Below are positions 4,789-36,369 of a stretch of 64,000 bases of DNA, piece by piece. Origin of the DNA: an uncultured Anaerolineaceae bacterium. Lineage in GTDB: Bacteria; Chloroflexota; Anaerolineae; JAAYZQ01. The position numbers and the translations under genes are program-made. The DNA is taken from assembly GCA_964387775.1 (NCBI GenBank), contig CAYLZO010000002.1, positions 8,003-72,002 on the forward strand, written 5' to 3'. Positions within the stretch are counted from its first letter, which is position 1. The number at the start of each line of letters is the position of its first letter. The notes under the pieces are model-generated. The model worked only from the letters and a program-made list of their open reading frames with translations. It was not told where the DNA came from and made no database searches.

Positions 4789-5206
4789 GCGGCAACCTCT
4801 TGACCATGGTCAGTTCGTTGCCTTCCTCGGGGTCGAAGGAAAAGCGGACCTCGTCCATGAACTTTCGGATCAAAAAGAGCCCCAGGCCGCCCAGGGAGCG
4901 CTCCTCCAGGGGAGCGTCCACGTCGGGCTTGGGCACGTCCTCCGGTTCAAAGCTCCGGCCCCAATTACGAACGCGCATGACGAACTTTTTGTCACCGAGG
5001 TGACAGCTGACTTCCATATCGCCCGGCTCCATGTCGCGGTAGGCGTGGTGGACGACGTTGGCGCAGGCTTCGTCCACGGCGAGCTCGATCTGGTGTAGAG
5101 TCCGCTCACTGAAACCGGCCCGCTGGGCCGCCTCGCGCACGCAGGCCATGGCGCGGGGCACGTTTTCCAAAACGGCTTTCATTCTGAACTTGGCGATCTG
5201 TTCCAT
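4778..5206 (-). CDS. RsbW/SpoIIAB-like anti-sigma-type serine kinase (HATPase_c)
   Basis: 142 aa. N-box ELAVDEACANVVHHAY and G-box GGLGLFLIRKFMDEV. Lies directly downstream of a STAS gene and overlaps the PP2C gene by 11 nt. Confidence 0.8.
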   Translation of the reverse strand: MEQIAKFRMKAVLENVPRAMACVREAAQRAGFSERTLHQIELAVDEACANVVHHAYRDMEPGDMEVSCHLGDKKFVMRVRNWGRSFEPEDVPKPDVDAPLEERSLGGLGLFLIRKFMDEVRFSFDPEEGNELTMVKRLPRGE

Positions 5207-5343: not shown

Positions 5344-5682
5344 CTAAAAGCTTCCGACGGCGTGCACGTCCTCGTCGTAGAACTTGAACAGGCGATCAAA
5401 CCCCACGAGGTCAAAGCTCTCTTTTAGTTTGGGCGTGATCTCGGAGATGACGACGTCCCCGCTCGGAATCGCCTTGCGGACCTTCATCTGAGCCGAGAGG
5501 AGTGCTTTGAGCCCGGCGCTGCTAATGTAGGGTGCGTCGGCCAGGTTCACGACGATGTTCTTCTGGCCTGCCTGGATCAGGCCCAGCAGGACCTTTTCCA
5601 ATTCTGGAGCGGTGGTGCTGTCAATCCGGCCCGAGACGGTGACCAACTCACAGCGCTTCATGGCCTCGGTCTTGATCTCCAT
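5344..5682 (-). CDS. STAS-domain anti-sigma-factor antagonist (RsbV/SpoIIAA-like)
   Basis: 112 aa from ATG 5682, with an AGGAGG RBS 7 nt upstream. Conserved phosphorylatable Ser context APYISSAGLKALL. The 197-aa ORF in the track is an upstream extension through non-coding repeats. Confidence 0.85.
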   Translation of the reverse strand: MEIKTEAMKRCELVTVSGRIDSTTAPELEKVLLGLIQAGQKNIVVNLADAPYISSAGLKALLSAQMKVRKAIPSGDVVISEITPKLKESFDLVGFDRLFKFYDEDVHAVGSF

Positions 5683-5737
5683 GGTTCGACCTCCTGTCTG
5701 ATTGAGTTTCGGAGCGTTGGCTTGAGCAACGTTGGGC

Positions 5738-7529: not shown

Positions 7530-7626
7530 CGGGAGTGGATGGGAGTCGAACCCACCAGGGCCGCTTCTGCAGCGCCCCTCATACGGTTTTGAAGACCGCG
7601 GAGCCCACCGGGACTCAACCACCCCC
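7530..7626 (-). tRNA. selC: tRNA-Sec (anticodon UCA)
   Basis: Hand-folded from the minus-strand sequence:
- 8-bp acceptor stem GGGGGTGG/CCACTCCC (one G-U pair).
- 6-bp D stem GAGTCC/GGGCTC with the 4-nt loop CGGT.
- Anticodon arm GCGGT-CTTCAAA-ACCGT (anticodon TCA).
- 27-nt variable arm.
- T arm GTGGG-TTCGACT-CCCAT, discriminator G; CCA is not encoded.
The architecture mirrors E. coli selC as recalled. Confidence 0.85.
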
Positions 7627-7699: not shown

Positions 7700-8491
7700 T
7701 CAGCGGGTGCGGCGTCGCCACTCTTTTTTCACAGAGAGCTGGTCCAACTGCTCCGGGGTCTCGACGTCCATGAAATCGCGGAGCAGGCGGGCGAACTTGG
7801 CCGTCTCGTCGAGCATGGGAAAATGGTGGGACTTGGAGAGCACGATAGCCCGGGCGGCATAGTGGTTTCGCTCCAGTTCGTCGGCCTGGTTGGGGTCGAT
7901 CACATTGTCCCGCTCGCCATAGACGGTCAGCAGGGGGACGTCTATTTCGTCCAGGATCGTGCGCAGATCGAGTTGAGCCACGGTCTGGATAGACAGGGCA
8001 ATGGCGTGCTCGGCGGTCTTGCTGACTGCCATCTCGACCTCAGGATAGGGGCGCTGCCGGTGCCAGAAGAGTCGGGCCATGGCGTCGTTAGGACCGGCTG
8101 AGAGGAGCCGGCGGTTGATCCCATCGGGCTTGAGGGGCAGGCCCACGGCCATCACCTTGCTCACCCGATCGGGCTGCTGCGCCGCGAGCTTGGCCGCGAT
8201 GGCCGCACCCAGCGTATGGCCCACCACCGGTGCCTGCCAGATGCCCAGCTCGTCCATGAAGGATAGGATCAGGTCTGTGTAGCGGTCCAAGTTGTACCGC
8301 TCTTTTGACTTGTCCGAATCCCCAAACCCCCACAGATCCAGGGCATAGGTGCGGAACTCGCGGGAGAGATCGTCCATCACCGGGACCCAATAGCGCCAGG
8401 AGCCAAGCCAGCCGTGGATAAAGATGACGGGCTTGCCCCGGCCAAAGATCTCGTAGTGTATGAGGTTGCCGTGAACCAGGATTCCGCTCAT
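7700..8491 (-). CDS. Alpha/beta hydrolase-fold protein with Thr at the nucleophile position
   Basis: 263 aa. HGWLGSWRYW oxyanion region. The nucleophile elbow reads GHTLGA (Thr codon ACG at 8213-8215) instead of GxSxG. Asp (GERDNVI) and His (SHHFPMLDE) are retained. Paralogue of the gene at 34478-35260. Confidence 0.8.
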   Translation of the reverse strand: MSGILVHGNLIHYEIFGRGKPVIFIHGWLGSWRYWVPVMDDLSREFRTYALDLWGFGDSDKSKERYNLDRYTDLILSFMDELGIWQAPVVGHTLGAAIAAKLAAQQPDRVSKVMAVGLPLKPDGINRRLLSAGPNDAMARLFWHRQRPYPEVEMAVSKTAEHAIALSIQTVAQLDLRTILDEIDVPLLTVYGERDNVIDPNQADELERNHYAARAIVLSKSHHFPMLDETAKFARLLRDFMDVETPEQLDQLSVKKEWRRRTR

Positions 8492-8526: not shown

Positions 8527-8907
8527 TTACGAGAGCTTTTCCAGCAAGACGGTGACGCGCTTGTACAACTCGTCCGGCGCGAATGGTTTCAGGATGTACT
8601 CCTCGGCGCCGAGCTCCAAGCCGTGCTTGATTTCGGCTTCTTGGCCGCGGGCAGACAAAAAGACGACGGGAATGTGCTTTGTCGAGTCCTGGGACTTGAG
8701 CGCCTGACAGGCCTCGTAGCCGTTCATTTTGGGCATGCGGACGTCTAGAAGGATCAGATCCGGCTGTTCCTTGGCAGCCTTGGTCACGGCGTCCTGGCCG
8801 TTGATGGCCTGCACCACGGTGAGTCCAGCAAACTGCAAGCTGTAGGTGATGAGTTGTCGAATATCAGGCTCATCCTCTGCTATGAGGACCTTCTTGTTCT
8901 GAGACAT
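8527..8907 (-). CDS. Single-domain CheY-like response regulator receiver
   Basis: KVLIAEDEPDIRQLI ... DLILLDVRMPKMNGYE ... PVVFLSARG ... KPF. Start placed at ATG 8907 with a GGAG RBS; the track ORF begins at an upstream TTG. Confidence 0.85.
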   Translation of the reverse strand: MSQNKKVLIAEDEPDIRQLITYSLQFAGLTVVQAINGQDAVTKAAKEQPDLILLDVRMPKMNGYEACQALKSQDSTKHIPVVFLSARGQEAEIKHGLELGAEEYILKPFAPDELYKRVTVLLEKLS

Positions 8908-8939
8908 GGTAGACTCCAAACTGAGAATTCAGTTGCCGC

Positions 8940-9536
8940 TCAGGTGTCGTCGCCGGACACTTCCAGGACCGCCACTGCGACGTCGTCCTTGCTGCTGCCA
9001 AAGCGCTCGACGATCTCGTGGGCCACGGTTTCGGGTGCCGCTTCTGGCAGGGCCGCCAAGCCCCCTTGCCGGATAAACTCGGACGAGATCCCGTCGGTAT
9101 AGATGGCGAGCCGATCTCCCGGCGAACAGTCGTAGCGGAACTCGATCAACTCGGGCAACCGGTGGCCCACCACCCCGTTCTGCGAGAAGGGCTGCATCGA
9201 CTCCCGGCTGTCGGCGTTAAAGCCGACGTTGCCCACCCCTACAAAAGACAGCTTTTTCGCCCGGTGTTCCACGCGGACGAGGGCTGCAACGATCCCTCGC
9301 GTCCCGTGCAGGGCTTTATGGCAATCGGTCAGAATCTCGACCAAGGGCCGGTTGCGGTTCGCTGCCACCCAGGCCACCGCTCGGCGCGAAGCTTCGGCGG
9401 CCGGCGGCCCGCTGCCCAGGCCGTCGACCACGGCAAGCAGGGTGCTGGCCTCGTCCTGCCAGACGCCGACGGTGTCTCCAGACGCCGACTCGCCATCCTT
9501 GGGACGGCAGACCGCGGCAGCTTTGGCGGTGATCAC
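8940..9536 (-). CDS. rsbX: RsbX-like PP2C feedback phosphatase
   Basis: 198 aa. Motifs are SGDTVGVW, LLAVVDGLGSGPPAAEAS, FVGVGNV and LAIYTDGI. Resembles B. subtilis RsbX (recalled) and sits directly after the RsbT-like gene. Confidence 0.75.
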   Translation of the reverse strand: MITAKAAAVCRPKDGESASGDTVGVWQDEASTLLAVVDGLGSGPPAAEASRRAVAWVAANRNRPLVEILTDCHKALHGTRGIVAALVRVEHRAKKLSFVGVGNVGFNADSRESMQPFSQNGVVGHRLPELIEFRYDCSPGDRLAIYTDGISSEFIRQGGLAALPEAAPETVAHEIVERFGSSKDDVAVAVLEVSGDDT

Positions 9537-9539
9537 GGG

Positions 9540-9941
9540 CTAGGGCAACCACTTGCAGGCGACCACCGTCGTGCCGCTGCCGACCTCTGACTCGATCTCG
9601 AACTCGTCCATCAGTCGTTTCGTTCCGGGCAGGCCCATTCCCAATCCTTGTGTCGTCGAATAGCCATTTTGCATCACCAGTTCCAGGTCCTTGATCCCGG
9701 GCCCCTGATCCTCGCAGATGATCTGGAGCCCTTCCTTTTCGTTGTGCTCGATTCTGTTCAAGATGATCTGCCCGCTATTGGCATAAAGCACCACGTTCCG
9801 TGCCAATTCCGAGATGGCCGTTGCGATCCGGGCCTGGTCGATGATGCCAAAGCCCATCTGCCGCGCCAGGTTGCGACCCTCGACGCGGGCGGCCACGATG
9901 TCCAGGTCGCTGTTGATGACGACGCGCTGTATTTCAGACAT
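9540..9941 (-). CDS. rsbT: RsbT-like stressosome serine kinase
   Basis: DIVAARVEGRNLARQMGFGIIDQARIATAISELARNVVLYA ... EDQGPGI ... GLGMGLPGTKRLMDEF is near-collinear with B. subtilis RsbT (recalled). ATG 9941 has GGAGG 9 nt upstream; the alternative start is ATG 9947. Confidence 0.85.
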   Translation of the reverse strand: MSEIQRVVINSDLDIVAARVEGRNLARQMGFGIIDQARIATAISELARNVVLYANSGQIILNRIEHNEKEGLQIICEDQGPGIKDLELVMQNGYSTTQGLGMGLPGTKRLMDEFEIESEVGSGTTVVACKWLP

Positions 9942-10314
9942 GGGCATCTTCCTCCACCGACAGGCGGCGCAAGATCTCGATGCCCTTCTCCAGGTTGAGG
10001 GCCGTGATAACGCCCCGCAACTCGACGCCCAGTTCGACCAGCGTGACGGCCACGGCGGGTTGCAGGCCCGAAACGACGACCTGGGTGCCCATCAGGGCGG
10101 CCATCTCGGCGATGTCGCCCGTGAGTTTGGCGATAAAGCTGTCCACGATCTCCATCGCCGTGAGATCCAGGATGAGGCCCCGGGCCTTTGTGTCGTAGAT
10201 GCGCTGGAGCAGATCGTCCTTGAACTGGGTCGCCGCCTTGTCGTGGAGCTGGGTTTGCACCGAGGCCACGAGAAAGTCCTGGATCTGCAAAATTGGAATC
10301 CGCGAAACTTCCAT
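9934..10314 (-). CDS. rsbS: RsbS-like STAS scaffold protein
   Basis: 126 aa: MEVSRIPILQIQDFLVASVQ ... GLILDLTAMEIVDSFIAKL ... VVSGLQPAVAVTLVELGVEL. Closely resembles B. subtilis RsbS, including the DS phosphosite. The 250-aa ORF in the track is an out-of-context extension. Confidence 0.9.
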   Translation of the reverse strand: MEVSRIPILQIQDFLVASVQTQLHDKAATQFKDDLLQRIYDTKARGLILDLTAMEIVDSFIAKLTGDIAEMAALMGTQVVVSGLQPAVAVTLVELGVELRGVITALNLEKGIEILRRLSVEEDAHV

Positions 10315-10802
10315 CAGTTGGCCCTCCCCTCCCCGTTCACTTGGGTGACTTGGAATCCCCGCTCGCTCAGCGCGTATTCGATGCCGGCCTGCAAATTGCT
10401 CCGGGTCACCACGCCCCCCAGGTCCAGGCCGAGCGTGACGATCGAGATGGCGGTCTCGTGGCTGATGCCCACCAGCACGCACTGGGCGCCCAGAAACGAC
10501 GCGGCCTTGATCGTCTTCATTAGGTGGTGGGCAACGGCCGTATCCACCATCGGCACGCCGGTAATGTCCAAGATGACGATCTCGGCCTGGTTGCGCACGA
10601 TGCCGTTTAGCAGATTCTCCATAATCCGCGAGGCGCGGGCTGCATCGATGGTGCCAACCAGCGGTACGGCCAGCACCCCTTCCCACACCTGGATCACGGG
10701 CGTGGACATCTCTTCAAACACACCTAGTCGAATTCGGCACTGGGCGAGTTGGGATCGGAGTTTCTCTATGTCGTTGGTTGTCTCGGTCGTTTTCTCGTTC
10801 AT
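10314..10802 (-). CDS. RsbR-type STAS protein, minimal (short coiled-coil N-terminus)
   Basis: 162 aa with an RsbR-type STAS domain: STPVIQVWEGVLAVPLVGTIDAARA ... ILDITGVPMVDTAVAHH ... LVGISHETAISIVTLG. Confidence 0.85.
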   Translation of the reverse strand: MNEKTTETTNDIEKLRSQLAQCRIRLGVFEEMSTPVIQVWEGVLAVPLVGTIDAARASRIMENLLNGIVRNQAEIVILDITGVPMVDTAVAHHLMKTIKAASFLGAQCVLVGISHETAISIVTLGLDLGGVVTRSNLQAGIEYALSERGFQVTQVNGEGRAN

Positions 10803-11767
10803 CGCTCCTGCGCCACCAATTCCATGGCATATTCGATGCCGGCTTGAAGGTTGCTGCGCGTCACCAGCTCCGAAAGGTCTACGCCCAATGTGACAATGAT
10901 CTCGGCCACGTTGGGGCGCAGCCCGGTGAGGACCGCCCTGGCACCCAACAGGCGGGCTGCGCGGGCCGCCTGGAGCAACGAGTGGGCGACGTTCGTGTCT
11001 ACCTGGGGCACGCCGGTGATGTCGATAATCACGACCCGGGCGTCGTGCTCCTCGATGCCCGTCAGCAATGCCTCCAGGATGCGGTCCGCCCGGCCCGGGT
11101 CCACGGCTCCGATCAGGGGCAGCACCAGGACCTCGTCGTGGACCGGCACAATCGGCGTCGAAAGCTCCTCCAGCGCCTCCTGGACCTGCCGGAAGAGGCG
11201 GTTGTTCTCGATAGCCACGGCGGCCTGGTTGGCGATCATGCCCAGGAGTCGGCGCTCGCGGGTGTCATAGACGCCGACCTCGTAGCTCTGGACCGAGATG
11301 ACACCCTTGACCTGGCCCCGGACCTTCATGGGCACCCCCAGCCACGAGCGGGCCTTTTTCCGTTCCTGCCCATAACGCTCCGGCTCCAGTTCAAAGCGCT
11401 CTCGGGCCTGGGCATAGACGTCGTCGAACAGGAGCGGCTGCCCATGTTCGATGATCCAACGCAGCAAAGGCCCCAGCTTTCGCTCCTCTGGCGGATAGAG
11501 CACTCCGTTGTCGGCGAACAAGGGAAAAAAGCCCCTCGTGGCGCCCGGCGCCGCCAGGACGATGTAGAACGCATCGACGGACAGCACCGCACAGATCTGC
11601 TGGTAAATGGTCTGGTACAGTTTTTCCAGCCTGGAGGACTCGAGCCCCAGGAACTGGCTGACCTGGTCGATGAGTTGCAGATCGGCCTCGTATTGCTTCA
11701 GCAGCTCCCTCAGCCGCTGGACGTCTGACCGGACGCCGGGCTCAGCCGGCAACCTGGTTTCAGCCAT
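10799..11767 (-). CDS. RsbR-type STAS protein with an N-terminal GAF domain
   Basis: 322 aa. GAF helix ANQAAVAIENNRLF, then STPIVPVHDEVLVLPLIGAVD ... IDITGVPQVDTNVAHS. ATGA overlap with the next gene. Confidence 0.85.
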   Translation of the reverse strand: MAETRLPAEPGVRSDVQRLRELLKQYEADLQLIDQVSQFLGLESSRLEKLYQTIYQQICAVLSVDAFYIVLAAPGATRGFFPLFADNGVLYPPEERKLGPLLRWIIEHGQPLLFDDVYAQARERFELEPERYGQERKKARSWLGVPMKVRGQVKGVISVQSYEVGVYDTRERRLLGMIANQAAVAIENNRLFRQVQEALEELSTPIVPVHDEVLVLPLIGAVDPGRADRILEALLTGIEEHDARVVIIDITGVPQVDTNVAHSLLQAARAARLLGARAVLTGLRPNVAEIIVTLGVDLSELVTRSNLQAGIEYAMELVAQER

Positions 11768-12851
11768 CGCCGACGATCCTCTTGCTCATCTTGGTCAGGG
11801 CGTGCTCGACGCCGCTTTGCAAGTTGCGTTTCGTATCCAGATGGCGCAAATCCACGCCGACCCGGATCATCTCGGCGGCTGATCGGGCGTGAAGGCCGAC
11901 GAGCAACACCTCTGCCCCCAGGAGCCGTCCGGCCTGGCCCATCGCTTCCAGGTGGTGCACGGTCTCCTCGTCCATTTCGAGCAAGCCGGTCAGGTCGATA
12001 ATGGCGACCTTGGCCCCGTGCTCGGCGATGCCGTGCAGCAGGGAGTGGCGGATGAGGTCGGCCCGGTGGGCGTCCATGTAGCCCACGATGGGCAGGACGA
12101 TGATCTGATCGTGCACGGCAATGACCGGCGCCGCCAGCTCTTCGATGGCCTCTAGAAGCCGTGCCTGCTGTTCGGTCCGAGCTTGCAGGTCGTTCAGGAG
12201 CACGGCCTGGTCGCGGCGCGCCGCCTGCAACTCTTCCGCCTGCTGGTGGGCCTCGTGAAGGGCCAGGGACAAGTGCCGGTTGCCGATCCAGTTGAGCACG
12301 GCCACCAGCAGCAGCACCAGGCCCAGGCTGAGGACGCTGGGCAACAAGGGCCACTGCAGCGGGATTTCACTTATCCCCAGGTGTTGCAGCAGGCCCACGA
12401 CGGCATAGAGCGCCCAGGCAATCACCGCCGTCACGATGCTCCCCTTGCCACCCAACAGCAAGCCGGCCAGGCTGACGGCCAGGAAATAGAGGACCACGTC
12501 GTTGATCTCGATCCCCGCCCGCCAGAGCGCCCAAGTGGTAAAGCCCAGCAGCGCGCCGATCAGGACGTAGCTGGTCACCTGCACCGCGCCCCGGCGGGAG
12601 AGAACATAGACGGCCGCACAGGCGGCCAGACCGACCCCCAGGGCCGCGAAGGAGGGCCACTGCATGGGGAGCCGAGTCGTTTCTGTGCCCGGGGTCAGCC
12701 ACAGCAAGAGATTGCTGGCCAGCCAGAGCACCCCGACGATGATCAGGCTGATGGCCGTCGCATTGAGCACCACCTCGCGAAGGGCCACCTCCGGATCGTC
12801 CGAGCGCCCGCCGAGAATCGATTGCAGGAAAGGCGGCATCCTAAGGCTCAT
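11760..12851 (-). CDS. RsbR-type STAS protein with a multi-pass membrane N-terminus
   Basis: 363 aa. About 190 aa of consecutive hydrophobic helices, a coiled coil, then STAS: AAPVIAVHDQIIVLPIVGYMD ... IDLTGLLEMDEETVHH. Confidence 0.8.
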   Translation of the reverse strand: MSLRMPPFLQSILGGRSDDPEVALREVVLNATAISLIIVGVLWLASNLLLWLTPGTETTRLPMQWPSFAALGVGLAACAAVYVLSRRGAVQVTSYVLIGALLGFTTWALWRAGIEINDVVLYFLAVSLAGLLLGGKGSIVTAVIAWALYAVVGLLQHLGISEIPLQWPLLPSVLSLGLVLLLVAVLNWIGNRHLSLALHEAHQQAEELQAARRDQAVLLNDLQARTEQQARLLEAIEELAAPVIAVHDQIIVLPIVGYMDAHRADLIRHSLLHGIAEHGAKVAIIDLTGLLEMDEETVHHLEAMGQAGRLLGAEVLLVGLHARSAAEMIRVGVDLRHLDTKRNLQSGVEHALTKMSKRIVGDG

Positions 12852-13996
12852 CCACCCGACCTCCCGCCCGGCGATTGGGGCGCAAACCCCGGTGGTCTCA
12901 CCGTGAGCTGCTGGCCCAGGATCGTCAAGGCGTGCTGAAAGCCACTCTGCAAATCCCGGCGCGTGACCACGTCTCCCAGCTTGACGCCAAGGGCTATCAA
13001 CGTCTGGGCGACCTCCGGCCGGATGCCGACCAGGATCGTCTCAGCGCCGAGAAGCCGCGTGGCCTTGGCCGTCTGCTTGACGGCCTGGGCCACCTGGGTG
13101 TCGACCTCGGGCACCCCGGTGACGTCCACGATCACCACCCGGGCGCTCTCCGCTTCGATGGTTGCCAGGAGATTGTCCATCAGGCGCTCGGTACGCGCTG
13201 CGTCCATGTGTCCGATCAGCGGGGTGACGATCACCCCCTCGTGGACCGGGATGATCGGTATGGAGAGCTGCTCCACCGTGTTCCATAGCCGCTGTTGTTC
13301 TGCCAGGCTGGCCTCCAGTTGATGGGCCGATTCGGTTCGCCGATCTACTTCTGCTTCTAGCTGCTCGCGGATCTCTTCCAGCACCTGGGCGTAGGCCAGG
13401 GCCTGGTGCTGCGATTCCAGGGCCTCGCCCAGCGCCCGCCTCACCTCGCGGTGAGAGAGCCAGACGATGACGGCCAGGGCCAGCAGCGCAATGCCCAGGG
13501 CGAGGCTGTCGGCGGCGAGGCTGTCGCCGGGCATCACCGGACGGGGCAGCCTGCCGGCCCGCTGGACCAGGCCCACGATAGCATAGCTTGCGGTACAGAG
13601 CAGAGCCAGGATGACGGCCGGCCAGACGCCGATGAGGACCCCGGCCATCACCGTCGCCAGGGCCAGGCCCACCAACGTGCTATGCCCGATGCCCAGGCGG
13701 ATGAGAATGGCCAGCATGGTCAAAAACAAGATCCCCGTGGGAATGTAGGCGGCCAGCCGCACCCGGCCCTGTCGCCCCAGCCAGTAGGCCAAACCGTAGA
13801 ACGGAATCTGGACAAAGGTATAGAGCATGCCGATGGCCGGCGAGTAGCCCATCAGCCAGGCCCACACGCTGGCCAGCCAGAGCACGAGGCTCAGCCCGCC
13901 CACGCCGACGAGCACCCGGTTCAGCACGTACTGCTGCCGGGCGACCTCCGGGTCGGACGAGGTTGGCGCCAGCCACATCGAGAGAGGCACCGTCAT
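12848..13996 (-). CDS. RsbR-type STAS protein with a multi-pass membrane N-terminus
   Basis: 382 aa. Hydrophobic N-terminal half, a coiled coil, then STAS: LSIPIIPVHEGVIVTPLIGHMD ... VDVTGVPEVDTQVAQA ... GIRPEVAQTLIALG. Confidence 0.8.
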   Translation of the reverse strand: MTVPLSMWLAPTSSDPEVARQQYVLNRVLVGVGGLSLVLWLASVWAWLMGYSPAIGMLYTFVQIPFYGLAYWLGRQGRVRLAAYIPTGILFLTMLAILIRLGIGHSTLVGLALATVMAGVLIGVWPAVILALLCTASYAIVGLVQRAGRLPRPVMPGDSLAADSLALGIALLALAVIVWLSHREVRRALGEALESQHQALAYAQVLEEIREQLEAEVDRRTESAHQLEASLAEQQRLWNTVEQLSIPIIPVHEGVIVTPLIGHMDAARTERLMDNLLATIEAESARVVIVDVTGVPEVDTQVAQAVKQTAKATRLLGAETILVGIRPEVAQTLIALGVKLGDVVTRRDLQSGFQHALTILGQQLTVRPPGFAPQSPGGRSGG

Positions 13997-16623
13997 GGAC
14001 TCTTCCCCTTGCCCGGTTTCTGCGCCGTGAGTCGCCGGCCGATGGCGTCGAGTGCGTATTGAAAGCCGCTTTGCAGATCGCTGCGCGTCACCATGTCGCC
14101 CAGGTTTACGCCGAGCGTCACCAGGGTCTGGGCCACGTCGGGCCGGATGCCAACCAGGATCGCCTCGGCGCCCAGGAGCCGCGCAGCGCGCACGCTCTGC
14201 ATCAGGTAGTTGGCCACTTGAGTGTCGATGACCGGCACGCCCGTGATGTCCAGAATGACGACCTTGGCCCGGTGTTCCTCGACCCCCCCGAGCAGGGTCC
14301 CCAGGATCTGCCCCGCGCGGCGTTCGTCCACGCGGCCCACCAGGGGCACGACGATGACCCCGTCTACGATGGGCACGACGGGGCTGGCCAGCTCCTCCAC
14401 GGTGTGGAGCAATTGTGCCTGGGCGCCCACCAGTTCCTGGAGGTCGAGGTTCAGCAACTGCATGTCTTTGAGCAACTGAAAGTTCTGGAGGGCCAGTGCC
14501 GTCTCCTGGGCAAAGAGCTCGATGATGTGCAGGCTCTCGGCCGTAGGGCGCCGGCCGTCCTGCGGATCATCCAGGCCGATGATGCCCAAGATCCGCCGGT
14601 CCCGGCCGTAAAGGGGCACGTAGAGCAGGTCCTGGGGATGCCAGGATTCGGTTTCTTTGGCGCTCACGCGACTCTTGACGCCTTGCACGTGCTCGCGGAC
14701 CCAGGGGTCGCTCCAGGGCAAATAATAGCACTGGCCGATGCGGAACCGTTCGAATTCCTCGCCGAATCGCTTTTGCCATTCGCTGCCCGGCAGGAGGTTG
14801 GCCCGCAAGGCGGCTTCGTCCTCGGGGCGAAAGCCGGCGCAGACCAACTCCGTAACGTTCAAGTCTGCGTCTCGCAGCGACACCGAGACCCGCCCCCAGC
14901 CGGTCTCCCGGATGCCCTCGGCAATGATCCGGAGCTTGTCCGGCAGGACGTCGGTTTTCTGCACCTCCAAGACGACGCGGTGCAGGCGGGCCAGTTTGTC
15001 CCGCTCCTCGGCGGCGCTCCGGTGGGCCTGCTGGACGTCTTCGTAGAGTTGGGCGTTTTGCAGGCTAATGCCCGCCTGATTGGCGATGGCCGTGAGCAGC
15101 CTCATCTGCCGGCCAGAGAAGGCGTAGGGCTCATAGCTCTGGGCGCTGATCACGCCCAGCACCTGGCCCTTGGCGATGATGGGCGCACCGAGCCAGGACT
15201 GGGTCGGTGCGCCGATGACCTCCGGCGCGATGGGTAATTGGTCTCGCTCCATTTCCATGTTTCGGATCAGCAGCGGCTGGAGCGTGCTCACGACGTGGGC
15301 CGTCAGACTCTGGTGTCTGGCCAGGGGGCGGCTAAAGGCGGCCAGCCGCTCGCCCTGGTCGTAGACCAGCTTAAAATGCAGTTCGTCCCGGTCCCGGTCA
15401 TAGAGGGCGACGAAAAAGGCCCGGGTATCCATGATCTCGCCGGCCTGCTCGTAGATGGTCTGAAGGACGTGGTCCACGTCGAGGCTGGAGGCCATCACCG
15501 CGCCGATGTTGGAAATGCTCTCCATCTCCCGGGCGCGGCGGGTGGCCTGATCGAGGAGCCTGGCCCGCTGGATGGCGGCGGCCACCTGGGTGGCCGTGAT
15601 GTTCAGGAACTTGAGATCGGCCTCGCCAAAGGCAAAGGGTTCGTGGCGAAAGGCATAGATCGTGCCGATGGCCTGCCCGTCGACGAGGAGCGGCACGCCC
15701 ACGGCCGAGCGGATCGGGTCGGTGCGGCCGCCGATGTGGATGCGGCGGGGGTCGGTGTCGGCGTCGCCCACCAGGGTGGGTTGGCCCTCCCGATAGATCC
15801 AGGCGTTGATGCCCTGGTCGAGGGGAAACTCGAGGCCCAGCATCGATTCTGCCAGCGAACCCACGGCGGCCCGCACGCGCAGGGCCTGGCCGCTGGACGT
15901 CGCCAGGTTGATGAAACAGCCGTCAAAGTCCAGCACGTGGCCGACCTGGGAGAGGACTGTGGCCAGCATCTCGTCGAGATGGGTCGCCTGGGCCAGGGTC
16001 GCCGCGATTTCGTAGAGGGAGCCCATCTCCTCGGCGTGGCGCCGCGTCTGGTCCAGCAGGCGGGCATTTTCGATGGCTATCGCCACCTGGCTGGCAAAGA
16101 TAGCGAGCACGCGCACGTCGTCGCTCTGAAAGTCGCGCCCTTGGCGTTTGTTGCAGACCTGGATGGCTCCCAGGAGCTTGCCCTCGTGTTGGAGTCCAAC
16201 GGCCAGAACGGTCTCGACCTCGATCTGCCGGGCCATTTCGTCCAGGCCCAGCCCTCGGATCAAGGGATCGTTCTGGGCGTCGTTCACGAGCAAATAGGCG
16301 CCATTCTCCCAGATGTCGCGGATGGGGCTTGCTTCGTCGATGGGGACCTGGTAGTCGGCGAGGATCTCGTCGGAGACGCCCATGGCCGGGGCCTGGGCAA
16401 TCAGGGCCTCTGCCTCGGCGTCGTAAAGCAGGATGATGGCGATCTCGGCCTGCAGCAGCTGGGCGGCCTGTTCGGTCAACTGGTGATAGATGTCCTCGCC
16501 CAGGTGAGTGGCCGCGCCAAAGACGCGAGCCGCCCGCTCCAACGCCGAGATCTCGCGATTTCGGGCTTTGAGCAAGGTTTTCAATTTTTCACAATCGGTT
16601 GCCTTTTGCTCCAGGTCGCCCAT
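13993..16623 (-). CDS. RsbR-type STAS protein with four GAF-like domains
   Basis: 876 aa. Four GAF-helix motifs (ASQVAIAIENARLL, ATQVAAAIQRARLL, ANQAGISLQNAQLY, AQETALALQNFQLL), then STAS: ASPVVPIVDGVIVVPLVGRVD ... LDITGVPVIDTQVANY ... GIRPDVAQTLVTLG. Confidence 0.85.
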   Translation of the reverse strand: MGDLEQKATDCEKLKTLLKARNREISALERAARVFGAATHLGEDIYHQLTEQAAQLLQAEIAIILLYDAEAEALIAQAPAMGVSDEILADYQVPIDEASPIRDIWENGAYLLVNDAQNDPLIRGLGLDEMARQIEVETVLAVGLQHEGKLLGAIQVCNKRQGRDFQSDDVRVLAIFASQVAIAIENARLLDQTRRHAEEMGSLYEIAATLAQATHLDEMLATVLSQVGHVLDFDGCFINLATSSGQALRVRAAVGSLAESMLGLEFPLDQGINAWIYREGQPTLVGDADTDPRRIHIGGRTDPIRSAVGVPLLVDGQAIGTIYAFRHEPFAFGEADLKFLNITATQVAAAIQRARLLDQATRRAREMESISNIGAVMASSLDVDHVLQTIYEQAGEIMDTRAFFVALYDRDRDELHFKLVYDQGERLAAFSRPLARHQSLTAHVVSTLQPLLIRNMEMERDQLPIAPEVIGAPTQSWLGAPIIAKGQVLGVISAQSYEPYAFSGRQMRLLTAIANQAGISLQNAQLYEDVQQAHRSAAEERDKLARLHRVVLEVQKTDVLPDKLRIIAEGIRETGWGRVSVSLRDADLNVTELVCAGFRPEDEAALRANLLPGSEWQKRFGEEFERFRIGQCYYLPWSDPWVREHVQGVKSRVSAKETESWHPQDLLYVPLYGRDRRILGIIGLDDPQDGRRPTAESLHIIELFAQETALALQNFQLLKDMQLLNLDLQELVGAQAQLLHTVEELASPVVPIVDGVIVVPLVGRVDERRAGQILGTLLGGVEEHRAKVVILDITGVPVIDTQVANYLMQSVRAARLLGAEAILVGIRPDVAQTLVTLGVNLGDMVTRSDLQSGFQYALDAIGRRLTAQKPGKGKSP

Positions 16624-16633
16624 GTGTGTCCCG

Positions 16634-18844
16634 TTACTCGTCTTTCACTGCTTTCGCCACCGGAAGCGTAAAGCTGAAGGTGCTGCCCTGTCCCGGTGTG
16701 CTTTCGACCCAGATCCGCCCCCCGTGGAGCTCGACCAGGGATCTGGCGATGGATAGGCTCAACCCTCGTCCCGCGTGTTCCTGGACGAGGGGGTGCTCGG
16801 CGCGGAAGAACCGCTCAAAGACCAGGGGCTGGTCTTCGGGCGCAATGCCGATGCCGCTGTCAGACACCGAGACGGTGACCCAGTCGGGCACGCGCCGCTG
16901 CAGCCAGTGCCCGCCCTTGGCCTCCCCTTCGATGGCGATGCGGCCCTTGGGCAGCGTGTAGAGAAAGGCGTTGGTCAGCAGGCTGCTGAGCACCTGGACG
17001 ATCCGCTCTTCGTCCACGTACACGTCGGGCAGGCGCGAGGAGACCTTGACCCCCAGCTTGAGATTCTTGGCCTGCAATCGTTGCTCATAGGAAGACACCA
17101 GGGGCGCCACGATCTGTTTGAGGGCAATCGGCTTTCTCTGCAACTCGGTTTCGCCCGTTTCCAGGCGAGCGATGTCCAGCATGTCCTCCATCAGGGTGAT
17201 GAGGTACTGGGTGCTGTTCTGGATCTTGCGGACGCTTTCGACGTGCATGATGTCCAATTCGCCCATCGCGCCGGACAGCAGCATGTCGCTGTAGCCCTTG
17301 ATGGACGTCAGCGGCGAGCGAAGCTCCTTGGCCACCTTGGTCACGAATCGGCTCTGGGCAGCGTGGAGCTCGCGGGCTTCCCGGTAGAGGCGGGCATTCT
17401 CCAGGGCAATGGTCACCGAGCTGGCCACGTTGCTGAGGCGATCCATGTCGTCCTGGGTAAAGGGGCCATCGACTTTGTTGAGCAATTCGATGACGCCGAT
17501 GCAGCGGTCGCGGAGCAGGAGCGGGGCACAGAGGATGGACCGCGTCGTGAAGCCGGTCGCATCGTCCACGTGGTCGTAAAAGCGCTCGTCGCTGTAGGCG
17601 TCGTTTACGACGGCCGGTTGGCCTGTCAGGGCCACCTGGCCGGCCACCCCCTGTCCCAGCTTGAGGCGGATGCCGCGCAGCGGCTCGGGGTCGCCCAGCC
17701 AGTTGGTGACGAATTCCAATTCCTGCGTCTCTTCGTTCAGCAGCAAGAGCGCCCCGGCCTCGACGTGGAACATGTCCATGATCCGGGCGGCGATCAGGTC
17801 AAAGACCTGTTCCCGGTCCAGGGTCGAAGTCACGGTGCGGGTGATGTCGTAGAGGTAGGTCAGCTCCTCCACCCGGCCGGCCAGGGCTTGATCCGTGGCC
17901 TGGTAGGAGCGGGCGTTTTCGATGGCGATGGCCGCAAAGTCGGCCAGGGCCTGGAGCATGGCTTCGTTGTTGGCGTTGAAGGGCTGGCTGCGCGTCCGGT
18001 TTGCGACGATCAGCACCCCGAAGGGCTCGTCCTTGATCACCAGGGGCACCGAAAGGAGCGACTGTACTTGGTAGTCGGCCGCGATCTCGATGCCCTGGTC
18101 GCTCTCCCCGGCCTGCATCCGCAGGGGGCGCGAGCCGTGCAGCATCTGGCCGGCAAAGGTCTCTTTGAGGGGCAGCCGCTCCAGGCTCGATCTCTGGAGC
18201 TCCAGGTTCTTTTGGGTGCGCAGCTCGAGTTGCTCTGTCTGGGGCGCCAGCAGCCACAGGGCACTTTCCTCGGCCTTGGTGATAAAGACGGCGGCTTCCA
18301 CCACCCGCTCCAGCACCCGGTCCAGGTCGAGCTGGGCGGCGACCGACTTGCTGAGGCCAAAGAGGACGCTCAACTCGCGCACCCGCTGCTCCAGGTCGCT
18401 GCGGGTCCTTTTCAACGCCCGGTTGAGCCGCTCTTTTTCGCGCCGGAGCCGGGCCTGCTCCAGGAGGCGGTCAATGATGGCCTGGGCGGTGTCCGTGTCA
18501 AAGGGCTTGGCCAGATAATCCTTGACGCCCAGCCGGAAAGCGTCCACCACCACCCCTTCCGACCCGTGGGCGGTCATGAGTATGACAGAGCTGGTGATGC
18601 CGCGCTCCTTCATCTCCTTCAAGACGTCGATGCCCGTCATGTCGGGCAGTTGCAGGTCGAGCATGACCAGGTCGGGCTTCTCCGCGACGAGGAGATCGAG
18701 CCCGGCCTGGCCCGTGGCGGCAGTCAGCGTCTCGTAGCCGAACTGGGGCAGCATCTCTTTACCCAGGAAGGTCCGCAGTTCCTTGCTGTCGTCCACGACC
18801 AGGATGCGCCCGGCTGTTTCGACTCTTCCGGCGTCAGGAGCCAT
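16634..18844 (-). CDS. Hybrid sensor histidine kinase: REC - 2xGAF - HisKA - HATPase
   Basis: ILVVDDSKELRTFL ... DLVMLDLQLPDMTG (REC). Two GAF helices (AAIAIENARSY, SVTIALENARLY). HisKA (RSPLTSIKGYSDML). HATPase (GRGLSLSIARSLVELHGGRIWVES). Start placed at ATG 18844 with a GAGGAGG RBS. Confidence 0.85.
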   Translation of the reverse strand: MAPDAGRVETAGRILVVDDSKELRTFLGKEMLPQFGYETLTAATGQAGLDLLVAEKPDLVMLDLQLPDMTGIDVLKEMKERGITSSVILMTAHGSEGVVVDAFRLGVKDYLAKPFDTDTAQAIIDRLLEQARLRREKERLNRALKRTRSDLEQRVRELSVLFGLSKSVAAQLDLDRVLERVVEAAVFITKAEESALWLLAPQTEQLELRTQKNLELQRSSLERLPLKETFAGQMLHGSRPLRMQAGESDQGIEIAADYQVQSLLSVPLVIKDEPFGVLIVANRTRSQPFNANNEAMLQALADFAAIAIENARSYQATDQALAGRVEELTYLYDITRTVTSTLDREQVFDLIAARIMDMFHVEAGALLLLNEETQELEFVTNWLGDPEPLRGIRLKLGQGVAGQVALTGQPAVVNDAYSDERFYDHVDDATGFTTRSILCAPLLLRDRCIGVIELLNKVDGPFTQDDMDRLSNVASSVTIALENARLYREARELHAAQSRFVTKVAKELRSPLTSIKGYSDMLLSGAMGELDIMHVESVRKIQNSTQYLITLMEDMLDIARLETGETELQRKPIALKQIVAPLVSSYEQRLQAKNLKLGVKVSSRLPDVYVDEERIVQVLSSLLTNAFLYTLPKGRIAIEGEAKGGHWLQRRVPDWVTVSVSDSGIGIAPEDQPLVFERFFRAEHPLVQEHAGRGLSLSIARSLVELHGGRIWVESTPGQGSTFSFTLPVAKAVKDE

Positions 18845-21446
18845 CGACGGCCTCCTCTGAGGTGGGCAGCGTGAACCCAAAGATGCTGCCTTCGCCCATT
18901 TTGCTCTTGAGCCAGATCCGCCCGCCGTGCAGCTCGACCAGGGACTTGGTGATAGCCAGGCCCAGGCCGGTGCCCGATTGATCCTGCACCAGCGGGTCCT
19001 CGCTGCGGTAGAATCGCTCGAAAACGTGGTCGAGTTCGTCCGGCTGGATGCCGATGCCGGTGTCCCGGATCGTGGTTTCCACCACGCCGTCCAGCCGGCT
19101 GGCGGCGATGGTGATCTGCCCGCCTACGGGCGTGTAGCGGCAGGCGTTGCTGACCAGGTTGGTCAGGATCTGCACCACGCGCTGGGGATCGCCCAACACC
19201 CGGGCGCTTTCGGGCTCGATCTGGACCGCGACCTCCAGCTCCTTCTCCGAGACCAGGGTGGAGAGCGCCTCCAGGGTGTCGCCGACGGCCTCTTGCAGGT
19301 CGAGGGGCTCGGCCAAGATCGTCAGGCGGCCGTCGTCGATCTTGGAAATGTCCGAGAGGTCGGCCACTAGCCGCATGAGGCGCCGGATGTTCCTCTGGGT
19401 CGTCGTCAAGCACCGGGTCTGCTTCGCGGTCAAGGGGCCGGCCCGCTCGGCCGCCAGGAGGTCGGTATAGCCCCGGATGGCCGTCATAGGGGCACTCAGC
19501 TCGTGATAGATGGCCGAGACGAAATTGCGCAGTTCTTTGGTCCGCTCCCGGACCTTTTCTTCCAGCTCCCGGCTGGCGGCCCGGACCTCTTCGTAGAGGC
19601 GGGCGTTCGCGATGGCGACGGCGGCCTGGTTGGCCAGCGCCCGCAGCAGGTCGAGCTCCTGCCGGGCATAGATGTCGCCCGACCGTTTCGGACCTAGCAG
19701 GTAGACTCCGACCATGCTATTGCCGCTGACGAGGGGCAGTACGACGCGAACGTCGGCTTGTCCCCAGGCTTCCGGCAGTTGGTCGGCCAGGGTCTGGGCT
19801 TTGTCGCCCTCGCCATCCAGCAGCAGGATCTGGCCGGGACGGGCGAGGTTCACGGCCGGGCCGCTGCGGGAAGAAAAAGAGAGGTCCAGGGCCGGTGCTG
19901 GGTCTGCCTGGCTGCCGGCTGTTTGCGCTGGCAGGGGCTCGAAGGTGGTCTCGTCTTTATTGAGCACCAACAGCCACGCCCAAGAGATCGACATCTGTTC
20001 GGGCACGCGTTCGAGGAGGAGCTGGCCCAGGTGGCTGAAGCGCAGGCTGGTGCCCAGCTCCAGGCTCCAGCGGACGATGGCCTGCTGGAAGCTGACCTGC
20101 TGCCGAAAAAAGTGCCGGTCGATGACGGTCTGGATGCGGCGCCGCAGGGGATCGACCAGTATGCCGATGATCAGCGCCGAAACAAAGACCAGGAGTGTGT
20201 AGCCGCTGCTGCCGGTGGCCAGGCCCAGGGCCGTGGAAGCCAGGGTGATGAGCAGCAGGTAGATGGCGGCCAGGGTCCCCGTCAGCAGGCTATAGACCAC
20301 GCTGCGGTTGAGGACCAGGTCGATGTCCAGCAGGCGGTAACGCAGGATGGAAAAGCCGAACGTGACGGGCAGGGGCAGCAGGCCCAAGAGCAAGAGGACG
20401 CTGGTTTCGGCCGTGTGCAGCCTCAGGATCGTCAGGATGATGTCGATGACGTTAACCACGACAGCACAGCTCAGGCCGACCATGATCCACTGGATCTGGC
20501 GTTTCACGACGGGCTGGGCCGTGGTCGTATAGACGTAGGCCAGGCTGGCCAGGCCAAAGGCTGCGCTGATTCCCAGGTAGCCAAAGGCCACGTTGTTTAG
20601 CAGCTCGTACTGCGGACCGGCGTATTTCCCGGTGCCTCTGGCCACCGATCCGGCCAGGGTGTAGATGAGTAGCCCCATCAGGACCAGACCGGGCAGGTGA
20701 AGGAGGGCCGACCAGCGATTCCGCACAAAGGGCCGTTCTTCCGGATAGCTGAGGAAAAAGAGGATGGCCATGCCGGGCGTCATGGTGAGGGCGATGATCT
20801 GGACGTAGATGAGCGGGACGAGTTCTGCCCTGAACAGGGAAAAATACAAGCCCAAGGGAAGCGCGGTCAGGAAAAAGAGGCGCGCCGCTCTGCGTTCGGG
20901 GTGTTGAAAGAGCACCAAGACGCCCATAGCCAGAAAGGCAAAGGTGACGATGTTGCGCAGGAACAGAGGCAGCGCGGGCGGAGGCCCTTCAATCGAGGCC
21001 GGGAGTGTAAGTGTTTCGCCGTCCCGCGCCACGTCGATGGTAATTGTGGCGCCCGGCGCAAACTCCCTGAGGGCTCGGCGGTAGCCCATCACGGTGGAAA
21101 TGGGTTTGCCATGGATGGCCAGCAGTTGATCGCCCGCTTGAAAGCCCAATTCGCCGCCCAGGGGGCCAACCCCGGCAATGACGAGCGTTTCGGGATTCAG
21201 CCGGTCATAAACCTCGCGGCTGACGAATCTTTTGCTCAACTCGCCATAGATTCCCGTCCCCTGCAAGACCAGAAAGAGAGCCGCCAACACCAGGGCGCCG
21301 ACGCGAATTCGTTGCGCCCGCACCAGACCCCTGTCGTGCTGGATCTCGGCCGGGCTGTGCGGCTGCGTCCCGACTTTGGGAGCGCTGATGTCTTGGGTGC
21401 CAGGCGATGCCGACAGTGTCGGGGCCGCCCTCCGTTGGCGATTCAT
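18834..21446 (-). CDS. Membrane sensor histidine kinase: TM - PDZ - multi-TM - GAF - HisKA - HATPase
   Basis: 870 aa. PDZ-like segment GGELGFQAGDQLLAIHGKPIS ... ITIDVARDGETLTL lies between TM1 and a multi-helix hydrophobic block. GAF helix ANQAAVAIANARLY; H-box IYHELSAPMTAIRGY; G-box GTGLGLAITKSLVELHGGRIW. Confidence 0.8.
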   Translation of the reverse strand: MNRQRRAAPTLSASPGTQDISAPKVGTQPHSPAEIQHDRGLVRAQRIRVGALVLAALFLVLQGTGIYGELSKRFVSREVYDRLNPETLVIAGVGPLGGELGFQAGDQLLAIHGKPISTVMGYRRALREFAPGATITIDVARDGETLTLPASIEGPPPALPLFLRNIVTFAFLAMGVLVLFQHPERRAARLFFLTALPLGLYFSLFRAELVPLIYVQIIALTMTPGMAILFFLSYPEERPFVRNRWSALLHLPGLVLMGLLIYTLAGSVARGTGKYAGPQYELLNNVAFGYLGISAAFGLASLAYVYTTTAQPVVKRQIQWIMVGLSCAVVVNVIDIILTILRLHTAETSVLLLLGLLPLPVTFGFSILRYRLLDIDLVLNRSVVYSLLTGTLAAIYLLLITLASTALGLATGSSGYTLLVFVSALIIGILVDPLRRRIQTVIDRHFFRQQVSFQQAIVRWSLELGTSLRFSHLGQLLLERVPEQMSISWAWLLVLNKDETTFEPLPAQTAGSQADPAPALDLSFSSRSGPAVNLARPGQILLLDGEGDKAQTLADQLPEAWGQADVRVVLPLVSGNSMVGVYLLGPKRSGDIYARQELDLLRALANQAAVAIANARLYEEVRAASRELEEKVRERTKELRNFVSAIYHELSAPMTAIRGYTDLLAAERAGPLTAKQTRCLTTTQRNIRRLMRLVADLSDISKIDDGRLTILAEPLDLQEAVGDTLEALSTLVSEKELEVAVQIEPESARVLGDPQRVVQILTNLVSNACRYTPVGGQITIAASRLDGVVETTIRDTGIGIQPDELDHVFERFYRSEDPLVQDQSGTGLGLAITKSLVELHGGRIWLKSKMGEGSIFGFTLPTSEEAVDGS

Positions 21447-34470: not shown

Positions 34471-34477
34471 TTGCCTT

Positions 34478-35260: not shown

Positions 35261-35317
35261 AGTCTCTCCTTCTCAAGACATATTCGTTCCCAGACAGTCC
35301 CTGCGGCTTCCTCCAGG

Positions 35318-35689: not shown

Positions 35690-35735
35690 TTGTTATTGCT
35701 CCTTCCTTCGTTCAAAATAAACTCGTTTCGGTTGC

Positions 35736-36266: not shown

Positions 36267-36369
36267 CTTTGCATCAACCTTGTCCTATATCACCAATGAT
36301 CTAGTAAGCCGAATGCTTCAACTTGGGACGGCATCCCGGCCGATCCTGGGATGCTGCCCATGCACTCCC

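Follow-up and report, generated by a model that had tools for sequence, protein, structure and literature searches.

Gene organization of the locus

We analyzed a window of 64,000 nucleotides (nt) from contig CAYLZO010000002.1 (GenBank assembly GCA_964387775.1), which belongs to an uncultured bacterium of the Anaerolineaceae, phylum Chloroflexota, focusing on a group of genes predicted to encode the stressosome components RsbR, RsbS, RsbT and RsbX. Stressosomes are pseudo-icosahedral RsbR/RsbS complexes of approximately 1.5-1.8 MDa that bind RsbT. An earlier reading of the same DNA, hereafter the original prediction, had described at this locus nine overlapping or near-abutting genes on the minus strand, five of them for RsbR paralogs, and all nine open reading frames were recovered at the coordinates given below, which are those of the window.

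In the direction of transcription, the first five genes (all on the minus strand) encode the RsbR paralogs, each with a C-terminal STAS domain detected by Pfam: R876 (13993-16623), in which four GAF domains precede the STAS domain; R382 (12848-13996), with a six-transmembrane (6-TM) domain followed by a cytoplasmic helix of approximately 65 residues; R363 (11760-12851), whose 6-TM domain is homologous to that of R382, whose stalk is shorter and whose STAS domain is divergent; R322 (10799-11767), with a single GAF domain; and R162 (10314-10802), constituted by a linker helix and a STAS domain (Pfam E-value 1e-16), without a sensor domain. These are followed, on the same strand, by the genes for RsbS (126 amino acids, 9934-10314), for which Pfam also reports a STAS domain and which carries Ser59 within a VDSF motif; for the switch kinase RsbT (9540-9941, 133 amino acids from the start annotated by NCBI, or 135 from an alternative start at 9947); for an RsbX-type single-domain PP2C feedback phosphatase of 198 amino acids (8940-9536); and for REC130, a single-domain receiver of 130 amino acids (8527-8919; Pfam Response_reg E-value 2.5e-31). 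No Pfam domain match was obtained for the N-terminal regions of R363, R382 and R162. Pfam and hydropathy agree with the earlier description of five paralogs differing in their N-termini, with four GAF domains, one GAF domain, none, and a membrane region twice.

Translational coupling is tight across the genes of the module. The R876/R382, R382/R363 and R322/R162 junctions are ATGA overlaps, the R363/R322 and RsbS/RsbT genes overlap by 8 nt (taking the 133-amino acid start of RsbT), and R162/RsbS overlap by 1 nt (TGATG), exactly as had been described from the sequence; gaps of 3 nt and 20 nt separate RsbT from RsbX and RsbX from REC130, respectively.

Identity of the RsbR, RsbS, RsbT and RsbX proteins

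The completeness of the RsbR/RsbS/RsbT/RsbX module was borne out by Pfam, by matches in the PDB and by the naming of RsbT homologs. In phmmer searches of the PDB, RsbS matched the RsbS proteins of Bacillus subtilis (E-value 1.9e-35) and Listeria (2.4e-35), as well as Moorella MtS (5.8e-33); in the alignment it is 49-51% identical to the B. subtilis and Listeria proteins (51% to that of B. subtilis), with conservation of Ser59. The best PDB match of each of the two membrane paralogs was to the STAS domain of Listeria RsbR, with E-values of 5e-29 for R382 and 6e-22 for R363, in both cases above RsbS, and no SpoIIAA chains were found among the PDB matches of these two STAS domains. Across the five paralogs, STAS identity to Listeria RsbR was 33-46% (44% for R876, 39% for R382, 33% for R363, and 43-46% for the soluble paralogs), and identity among themselves was 38-56%.

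The best NCBIfam match of each RsbR paralog was the STAS half of the family of YtvA, itself an RsbR paralog, and in a Foldseek search of the PDB with the structural model of R382 the top matches were all stressosome chains. As a contrast within the same window, a 113-amino acid protein encoded at 5344-5685 matched antagonists of the SpoIIAA/RsbV type and not RsbS. Judged by the agreement of the PDB, NCBIfam and Foldseek matches, all five paralogs carry STAS domains of the RsbR type, and RsbS one of the RsbS type, rather than generic domains as in SpoIIAA or SulP, a distinction on which the original prediction hinged.

The only two PDB matches of the phosphatase were Moorella MtX (3ZT9, E-value 2.9e-24) and B. 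subtilis RsbX (3W40, E-value 2.3e-13), in agreement with its earlier assignment as an RsbX-like PP2C, and its Pfam match is SpoIIE/PP2C. The kinase encoded directly after rsbS is a GHKL Ser/Thr kinase (Pfam HATPase_c/HATPase_c_2), with thousands of homologs at 64-84% identity that carry the JGI name 'serine/threonine-protein kinase RsbT'; its putative identity as RsbT rests on family, size, position and naming.

Regarding the phospho-acceptor sites of RsbR, the position equivalent to T205 of B. subtilis and T209 of Listeria is a threonine in four of the five paralogs (T801 in R876, T300 in R382, T258 in R322 and T88 in R162). R363, whose STAS domain is the most divergent of the five and reads HARSAA in place of RPEVAQ, displays Glu295 at this site, and its orthologs display Pro, Ala or Gly; consequently, the R363 subfamily would not be phosphorylatable at this position. 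At the level of protein sequence, the features that define a stressosome and can be assessed in this way are all present, except for the site equivalent to T171 of B. subtilis.

Predicted topology of the membrane paralogs

Hydropathy, structural modeling and the distribution of charged residues agree in supporting the earlier proposal that two of the RsbR paralogs are polytopic membrane proteins. On the Kyte-Doolittle scale, the N-terminal region of approximately 190 residues of R363 and R382 contains several strongly hydrophobic 19-residue segments (1.9-2.5), while only isolated, weaker segments (1.6-2.0), located within soluble domains, were found in the remaining rsb proteins. An AlphaFold 2 model of R382, obtained with 20 homologs as input (mean predicted local distance difference test score of 82), contains six helices, comprising residues 16-48, 54-75, 79-101, 105-121, 124-146 and 156-244; the last one is unbroken, exits the membrane near residue 178 and continues for another 65 residues or so until the first STAS strand. 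R363 can be aligned with R382 across all six helices, its stalk being approximately 25 residues shorter.

The mean number of Lys and Arg residues, counted over the 20 homologs, was 3.45 at the N-terminus, 2.6 in loop 2 and 2.45 after TM6, all segments predicted to be inside, versus 0.25, 0 and 0.7 in loops 1, 3 and 5, respectively, which are predicted to be outside. According to these counts, the membrane domain is predicted to be N-in/C-in and obeys the positive-inside rule; therefore, the STAS domain would be cytoplasmic, as a role in the stressosome requires. As far as prediction can show, R382 and R363 are integral membrane proteins. Because the outer loops comprise merely 4-14 residues, a signal would have to be read within or at the membrane.

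The stalks, of approximately 65 residues in R382 and 50 in R363, would span roughly 7-10 nm; the corresponding linker has approximately 15-30 residues in the GAF paralogs and 20 in Listeria RsbR. Judging from the model, stalks of this length are what a membrane domain would need in order to clear the neighboring turrets of a mixed particle.

The six-helix domain and its partners

Residues 1-200 of R382 were searched exhaustively with HMMER against 1.84 billion representatives; at a cut-off of E≤1e-3, this retrieved 290 clusters containing the six-helix domain, 60 of these at E≤1e-10; the domain is N-terminal in almost all of them, and the host proteins display many lengths. When 87 of the 290 clusters were scanned with Pfam, the partner domains were HATPase_c (39 of 87), GAF (33), HisKA (16), PAS (14, for PAS_9, the commonest PAS model), REC (7), STAS (7) and SpoIIE (1). 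No Pfam family reached its threshold with residues 1-240 of R382 or R363, with matches considered up to an E-value of 10. MASE11 (PF20969) was considered for the N-terminus of R382 and rejected, as it scored 12.6 bits (E-value 0.13) against a cut-off of 27.3, and R363 gave no match to this family. The Foldseek comparison of the full R382 model with the PDB returned STAS-driven matches only, with nothing informative on the six-helix domain.

Based on its distribution in sequence databases, the six-helix region is a still unnamed module of MASE-like type, a sensor or anchor found elsewhere mostly on histidine kinases, and a candidate for a new MASE-like sensor domain family. With the MASE-type sensors of histidine kinases and diguanylate cyclases, it shares an N-terminal multi-helix arrangement with minimal extracytoplasmic loops, as well as the modular fusion to HisKA/HATPase, GAF, PAS and STAS outputs; unlike them, it falls below the cut-off of every Pfam family.

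Genes surrounding the module

The module is part of a co-directional array of approximately 24 kb, in which no gap exceeds 72 nt from 30443 to 7700. Upstream of R876, on the minus strand, the following genes were recognized by Pfam: HK748 (16634-18880), a REC-GAF-GAF-HisKA-HATPase kinase of 748 amino acids whose stop codon lies 10 nt before the start of R876; HK870 (18834-21446), a membrane PDZ-GAF-HisKA-HATPase histidine kinase of 870 amino acids, recognized also by its hydrophobic spans, whose gene overlaps that of HK748; a hybrid histidine kinase of 2972 amino acids (21452-30370), separated from HK870 by 5 nt and harboring 12-13 GAF domains, PAS, HisKA and HATPase_c domains, and two REC domains; and, after a gap of 72 nt, a protein of 298 amino acids (30443-31339) with a REC domain (Response_reg E-value 1e-27) and a partial GGDEF match (E-value 2.9e-11). 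The active-site motif of this REC-GGDEF-like protein reads GGDDF, and its activity as a cyclase is doubtful.

Downstream of rsbX, the identification of REC130 as a CheY-like single-domain receiver is supported by a Pfam Response_reg match that covers positions 1-110 of 111 and by an intact acceptor pocket (E15/D16, D59, S89 and K111), which is kept in five orthologs; the receiver gene directly follows rsbX in the related loci L003 and L004 as well as in the more distant L029, L039 and L044, described in the next section. It is followed, after 35 nt, by the last gene of the array (7700-8491, minus strand), which encodes ABH263, a protein of 263 amino acids with an alpha/beta-hydrolase fold according to Pfam. 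Its nucleophile elbow reads GHTLG, with Thr93 in place of the serine of the GHSMG motif in 7DQ9, to which it was aligned. The threonine of the 'Thr-variant hydrolase' in the original prediction is real, but a catalytic variant is unlikely: the elbow is also GHTLG in the orthologs from L003 (14715-15506) and L004 (15486-16277), while it is GHALG in those from L029 (12495-13283), L039 (12690-13514) and L044 (13144-13935). Because these distant orthologs carry alanine at the nucleophile position, ABH263 looks like a pseudo-enzyme, and its sequence suggests that it is probably a non-catalytic adaptor or receptor acting as the partner of REC130. ABH263 and its orthologs all keep the Asp and the His, together with a basic C-terminal tail (K-x-EWRRRTR), and a paralog in the same window, ABH260 (34478-35260), which is 39% identical, retains GHSMG. 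In B. subtilis, the alpha/beta hydrolase RsbQ is the partner of RsbP. An RsbQ-like role was considered for ABH263 and found to be unsupported, given that the first 60 PDB matches do not include RsbQ and that the protein has lost its nucleophile.

The array is followed by a tRNA-Sec (selC) gene (7531-7626, minus strand; detected by ARAGORN, Rfam RF01852 at 69.6 bits), located, in a signaling island that otherwise encodes proteins, between the genes for ABH263 and a Wzy_C membrane protein recognized by Pfam. A promoter scan revealed a promoter-like site at 7666-7638, just upstream; the tRNA gene probably marks the downstream end of the stressosome transcription unit. Beyond the Wzy_C gene, approximately 2 kb downstream of the module, a partner-switching set is encoded on the minus strand. 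It includes the already mentioned RsbV/SpoIIAA-type antagonist of 113 amino acids (5344-5685; Pfam STAS, motif YISSAGL, PDB E-values of 4e-8 for SpoIIAA and 1e-3 for RsbV); an RsbW/SpoIIAB-type kinase of 142 amino acids (4778-5206; Pfam HATPase_c_2 E-value 1.3e-32); and PP2C1187, of 1187 amino acids (1225-4788), with four GAF domains and a PP2C (SpoIIE) domain by Pfam, and a hydrophobic multi-helix N-terminal region of approximately 250 amino acids.

No sigma factor was found by Pfam among the genes scanned between 650 and 63466 of the window. The lack of sigma-B wiring that had been proposed for the operon agrees with this result, since neither a sigma-70 domain nor RsbU_N was detected among the scanned genes. 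Conversely, the original prediction had considered the receiver and the hydrolase as the only visible outputs, which was wrong, because the three upstream kinases, the REC-GGDEF-like gene and the downstream partner-switching set are also present on the same strand.

Conservation in other Chloroflexota

Related loci were found in other genomes of the phylum. L003, L004 and L005 are close metagenomic relatives (51-58% identity for R382), with four to five copies of rsbR, and share the order giant GAF kinase, PDZ kinase, REC-GAF kinase, GAF-RsbR, TM-RsbR, TM-RsbR, (GAF-RsbR) and short RsbR. In L003 and L004 this is continued by RsbS, RsbT, RsbX, REC, hydrolase, Wzy_C, RsbV-like, RsbW-like and GAF-PP2C; in L005 the upstream gene order is the same and the contig stops before rsbS. 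L003 and L004 also harbor orthologs of HK870 and HK748, and their short RsbR proteins, orthologous to R162, have 161 and 164 amino acids, respectively.

The RsbS-RsbT-RsbX-REC-hydrolase order is kept in L003 and L004 and, at a greater distance, in L029 (Thermoflexales) and in L039 and L044 (Anaerolineae), the receivers of these last three scoring 140-152 bits and the hydrolases 257-268 bits. Counterparts of the giant GAF kinase (1700-2760 amino acids) are located upstream of rsbR in L003, L007, L029 (at the contig edge), L039 and L044. Orthologs of the REC-GGDEF-like protein adjoin the giant kinase in L007, L039 and L044 (413-440 bits; 413-422 bits in L039 and L044). Neither Wzy nor partner-switch genes were found beside the RsbS-RsbT-RsbX-REC-hydrolase genes of L029, L039 and L044. 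Since the distant genomes keep the two-component genes without the partner-switch set, a functional tie of the module, hereafter RSTX (rsbR, rsbS, rsbT and rsbX), to the former is suggested, and a weaker one to the latter.

TM-type rsbR genes are found inside rsbS-rsbT operons in L003, L004, L048 and L053. The last two belong, together with L011, L018 and L060, to a Chloroflexia lineage whose operons contain five to nine rsbR genes; in L048 (1-14013), nine of them in tandem, three being of the TM type, precede rsbS-rsbT-rsbX, and in L053 there is a single TM-type gene. Directly upstream of the first rsbR, seven loci encode an additional RsbT-like kinase of divergent sequence, scoring 83-118 bits to RsbT (L011, 5891-6325; L018, 7031-7474; L029, 7739-8338; L039, 8988-9455; L044, 8906-9382; L053, 3629-4216; L060, 5894-6337), at the place that histidine kinases occupy in our window.

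In Roseiflexus, Chloroflexus, Oscillochloris and Herpetosiphonaceae, full-length 6TM-STAS homologs (30-36% identity) are common, and many carry the IMG label 'rsbT co-antagonist protein RsbR'. The matches to R382 also included RsbR-like STAS proteins whose N-termini are of the dCache+HAMP or HAMP type, likewise membrane architectures. In another locus, L014 (221-5921), three TM-type STAS genes were observed in tandem.

Comparison with known stressosome systems

Published RSTX modules have HisKA, REC and GGDEF partners, and their non-sigma outputs include PP2C, c-di-GMP and HisKA/REC phosphorelays (PMC9237108); the statement in the original prediction that RsbRST modules with outputs other than sigma factors are known is in line with these HisKA/REC and GGDEF cases (PMC9237108). 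By gene content and sequence matches, our module is closest to the Moorella/Vibrio class and not to the sigma-B class of Bacillus. With the MtR-MtS-MtT-MtX system of Moorella thermoacetica (GGDEF output) and the RsbRSTX systems of Vibrio vulnificus and V. brasiliensis (two-component D1/D2 output), it shares the order rsbR-rsbS-rsbT-rsbX, in which the feedback phosphatase gene comes right behind rsbT, the lack of a sigma factor, and HisKA, REC and GGDEF neighbors (PMC9237108). The likeness to Moorella extends to the proteins, RsbX being nearest to MtX (E-value 2.9e-24) and RsbS matching MtS (E-value 5.8e-33). In contrast, a single RsbR, bearing a globin-type sensor, is present in those systems, whereas five were found here, with GAF, 6-TM or no sensor domains; here, moreover, the kinases are encoded upstream, and a single-domain REC and a serine-less hydrolase-fold protein downstream.

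The sigma-B stressosome of B. subtilis and Listeria (RsbRA-RD, YtvA, RsbS, RsbT and RsbX) resembles the present module in having several RsbR paralogs of one STAS type, and at the sequence level in RsbS (49-51% identity, with Ser59), in the STAS domains of RsbR (33-46%) and in the threonine equivalent to T205/T209, present in four of five paralogs. However, our operon lacks RsbU (RsbU_N), RsbV, RsbW and SigB, encodes all paralogs in tandem, carries the T171/T175 equivalent in none of them, and has GAF or membrane sensors instead of non-heme globin or LOV domains.

The idea, put forward in the original prediction, of physically connecting RsbR turrets to the membrane has a conceptual precedent in Listeria, where the membrane miniprotein Prli42 reportedly tethers or activates the stressosome (Impens et al. 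2017, cited in PMC8942246). In that account, as it is relayed in the citing paper, the single-pass Prli42 is a molecule distinct from the soluble RsbR to which it binds, whereas here the RsbR subunit itself would be six-pass.

Our literature searches, whose coverage was incomplete so that absence is not proof, retrieved no paper on a membrane-integral (polytopic) RsbR or on Chloroflexota stressosomes, and within that coverage the earlier statement that an assembly with membrane RsbR had not been characterized holds. Membrane-integral RsbR thus appears to be undescribed, though such proteins are common in Chloroflexota genomes, and in public metagenomes they already bear automatic RsbR annotations. 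Every component is of a known kind, and the non-sigma outputs have already been published.

Proposed mechanism and alternative explanations

With the integration of these findings, we consider it rather probable that the locus encodes a Chloroflexota RSTX stressosome module (five rsbR, rsbS, rsbT and rsbX) whose membrane paralogs co-assemble with the others, and which is embedded in a two-component/c-di-GMP array. In the proposed mechanism, the RsbR paralogs and RsbS would co-assemble into a core that sequesters RsbT; the membrane paralogs would fill a few positions and, via their long stalks, hold a fraction of the particles at the membrane, allowing a membrane or envelope signal to enter the same hub as the ligands of the GAF domains. 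On stimulation, RsbT would phosphorylate Ser59 of RsbS and the single conserved Thr of four RsbR paralogs (not R363), and the freed RsbT would act on the adjacent phosphorelay, namely the REC-GAF-GAF kinase, the giant hybrid kinase, and the acceptors REC130 and the REC-GGDEF-like protein. RsbX would then reset the system, and the serine-less hydrolase-fold protein might function alongside REC130 as a non-catalytic adaptor or ligand receptor. Membrane tethering or nucleation of the stressosome, as put forward in the original prediction, is likewise an inference. We tentatively put forward, as a possibility, a more specific arrangement in which membrane RsbR dimers, soluble GAF-RsbR and RsbS would constitute either a membrane-docked stressosome, by means of coiled-coil stalks of 7-10 nm, or, if the TM paralogs acted as nucleators, an open, membrane-bound partial shell; in both cases a single hub would combine an intramembrane or envelope signal with cytoplasmic GAF ligands and relay the result to the histidine-kinase/REC/c-di-GMP network and not to a sigma factor.

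Several points weigh against this proposal. That membrane and soluble paralogs co-assemble is itself inferred. A closed pseudo-icosahedral core cannot place every turret in the same membrane, which leaves mixed or partial particles as the only ones allowed by geometry. The position equivalent to T171 of B. subtilis and T175 of Listeria lacks a threonine in all five paralogs (E, A, A, P and A). Neither RsbU_N nor another RsbT-docking domain was detected by Pfam in PP2C1187, the kinases, REC130 or ABH263. Among the related loci, the 6TM-STAS homologs of Roseiflexus, Chloroflexus and others are usually orphans or tandem pairs located far from rsbS/rsbT; furthermore, in the Chloroflexia lineage of L011, L018, L053 and L060, rsbX is followed, as seen in L011 and L053, by unrelated genes (e.g., glycosyltransferase, aminotransferase), and therefore the REC-hydrolase pair is not universal.

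Some of these observations would also be accounted for if the membrane paralogs were outside the particle, forming separate membrane STAS dimers that bind RsbT (or RsbS) and act as a rival sink or release site to a cytoplasmic stressosome of R876, R322, R162 and RsbS, an arrangement that we regard as unlikely. Although the turrets of the closed icosahedral core face all directions, as established by its structures (6QCM, 7B0U and 7O0I), which favors such separate dimers, the stalks of 50-65 residues would be long enough to clear the neighboring turrets. Likewise, the STAS domain of R363 is the most divergent (33%, with HARSAA for RPEVAQ and no phosphorylatable Thr), but that of R382 is as RsbR-like as those of the soluble paralogs (39% vs 43-46%). 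The orphan homologs of Roseiflexus and Chloroflexus, encoded far from rsbS/rsbT, are to be set against the location of both membrane genes within the translationally coupled rsbR block, and against the established co-assembly of B. subtilis RsbR paralogs that are encoded outside the operon.

The two remaining explanations concern the output of the module and the nature of its membrane proteins. The output could be sigma-B-like after all if RsbT activated the GAF-PP2C encoded 2 kb downstream, leading to dephosphorylation of the RsbV-like protein and release of a target of the RsbW-like kinase (a sigma factor encoded elsewhere). The RsbV-like, RsbW-like and PP2C genes are indeed on the same strand, in an arrangement that is syntenic in L003 and L004; however, the set is not beside RSTX-REC-ABH in L029, L039 and L044, and in our window it is set apart from the rsb genes by the tRNA-Sec gene, which has a promoter-like site of its own, and by the Wzy_C gene. 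PP2C1187, moreover, has a membrane region of its own and four GAF sensors without RsbU_N, and no sigma factor gene was found in the 64-kb window, so that we consider this cascade improbable. Far less credible is a reading of R382 and R363 as degenerate transporters of the SulP/SLC26 type, or as regulators of transporters, that merely adjoin the rsb genes. Their layout, with a cytoplasmic STAS domain after a membrane domain, does resemble that of SLC26, and matches were obtained to SLC26A11 with Foldseek (E-value 2.6e-5) and to the NCBIfam sulP model (5e-5), but the SLC26 alignments had root-mean-square deviations above 30 Å or were confined to the STAS domain, which fits RsbR at least 20 orders of magnitude better than any SulP model. 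SLC26/SulP proteins have fourteen helices in a 7+7 inverted repeat instead of six, no Sulfate_transp or other transporter match was obtained with Pfam in residues 1-240 even at an E-value of 10, and the membrane domain is common to histidine kinases and not to transporters; by helix number, STAS subtype and domain partners, the SulP remnant is effectively refuted and was rejected.

Returning to a stressosome with membrane-embedded subunits, its relevance lies in a central open question of the field, namely what stressosomes sense and how envelope signals reach a cytoplasmic particle, for which the sole proposed link in Listeria is a separate miniprotein, Prli42. If true, a six-pass RsbR subunit would constitute a direct and genetically tractable route from the envelope, by means of a domain that elsewhere belongs mostly to histidine kinases, and would raise the structural question of how an icosahedral core accommodates turrets embedded in a membrane. 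In addition, the conserved neighborhood of RSTX-REC-pseudo-hydrolase with the giant GAF kinase and REC-GGDEF offers concrete candidates for the targets of RsbT in non-sigma stressosomes, which lack RsbU.

Other genes in the window

Two further groups of genes were observed elsewhere in the window. At 33814-37197 (minus strand), a second signaling cluster, an MglA/MglB-like set, encodes a V4R protein, ABH260, a Roadblock/LC7 protein, a Ras-like small GTPase and a DUF4388 protein. The region 42142-63466 contains a polysaccharide-type cluster with an NAD epimerase, at least four sulfotransferase-family genes and glycosyltransferases; around 44-48 kb, the G+C content is 0.56-0.57 versus approximately 0.65 elsewhere in the window, which could mean a foreign origin.

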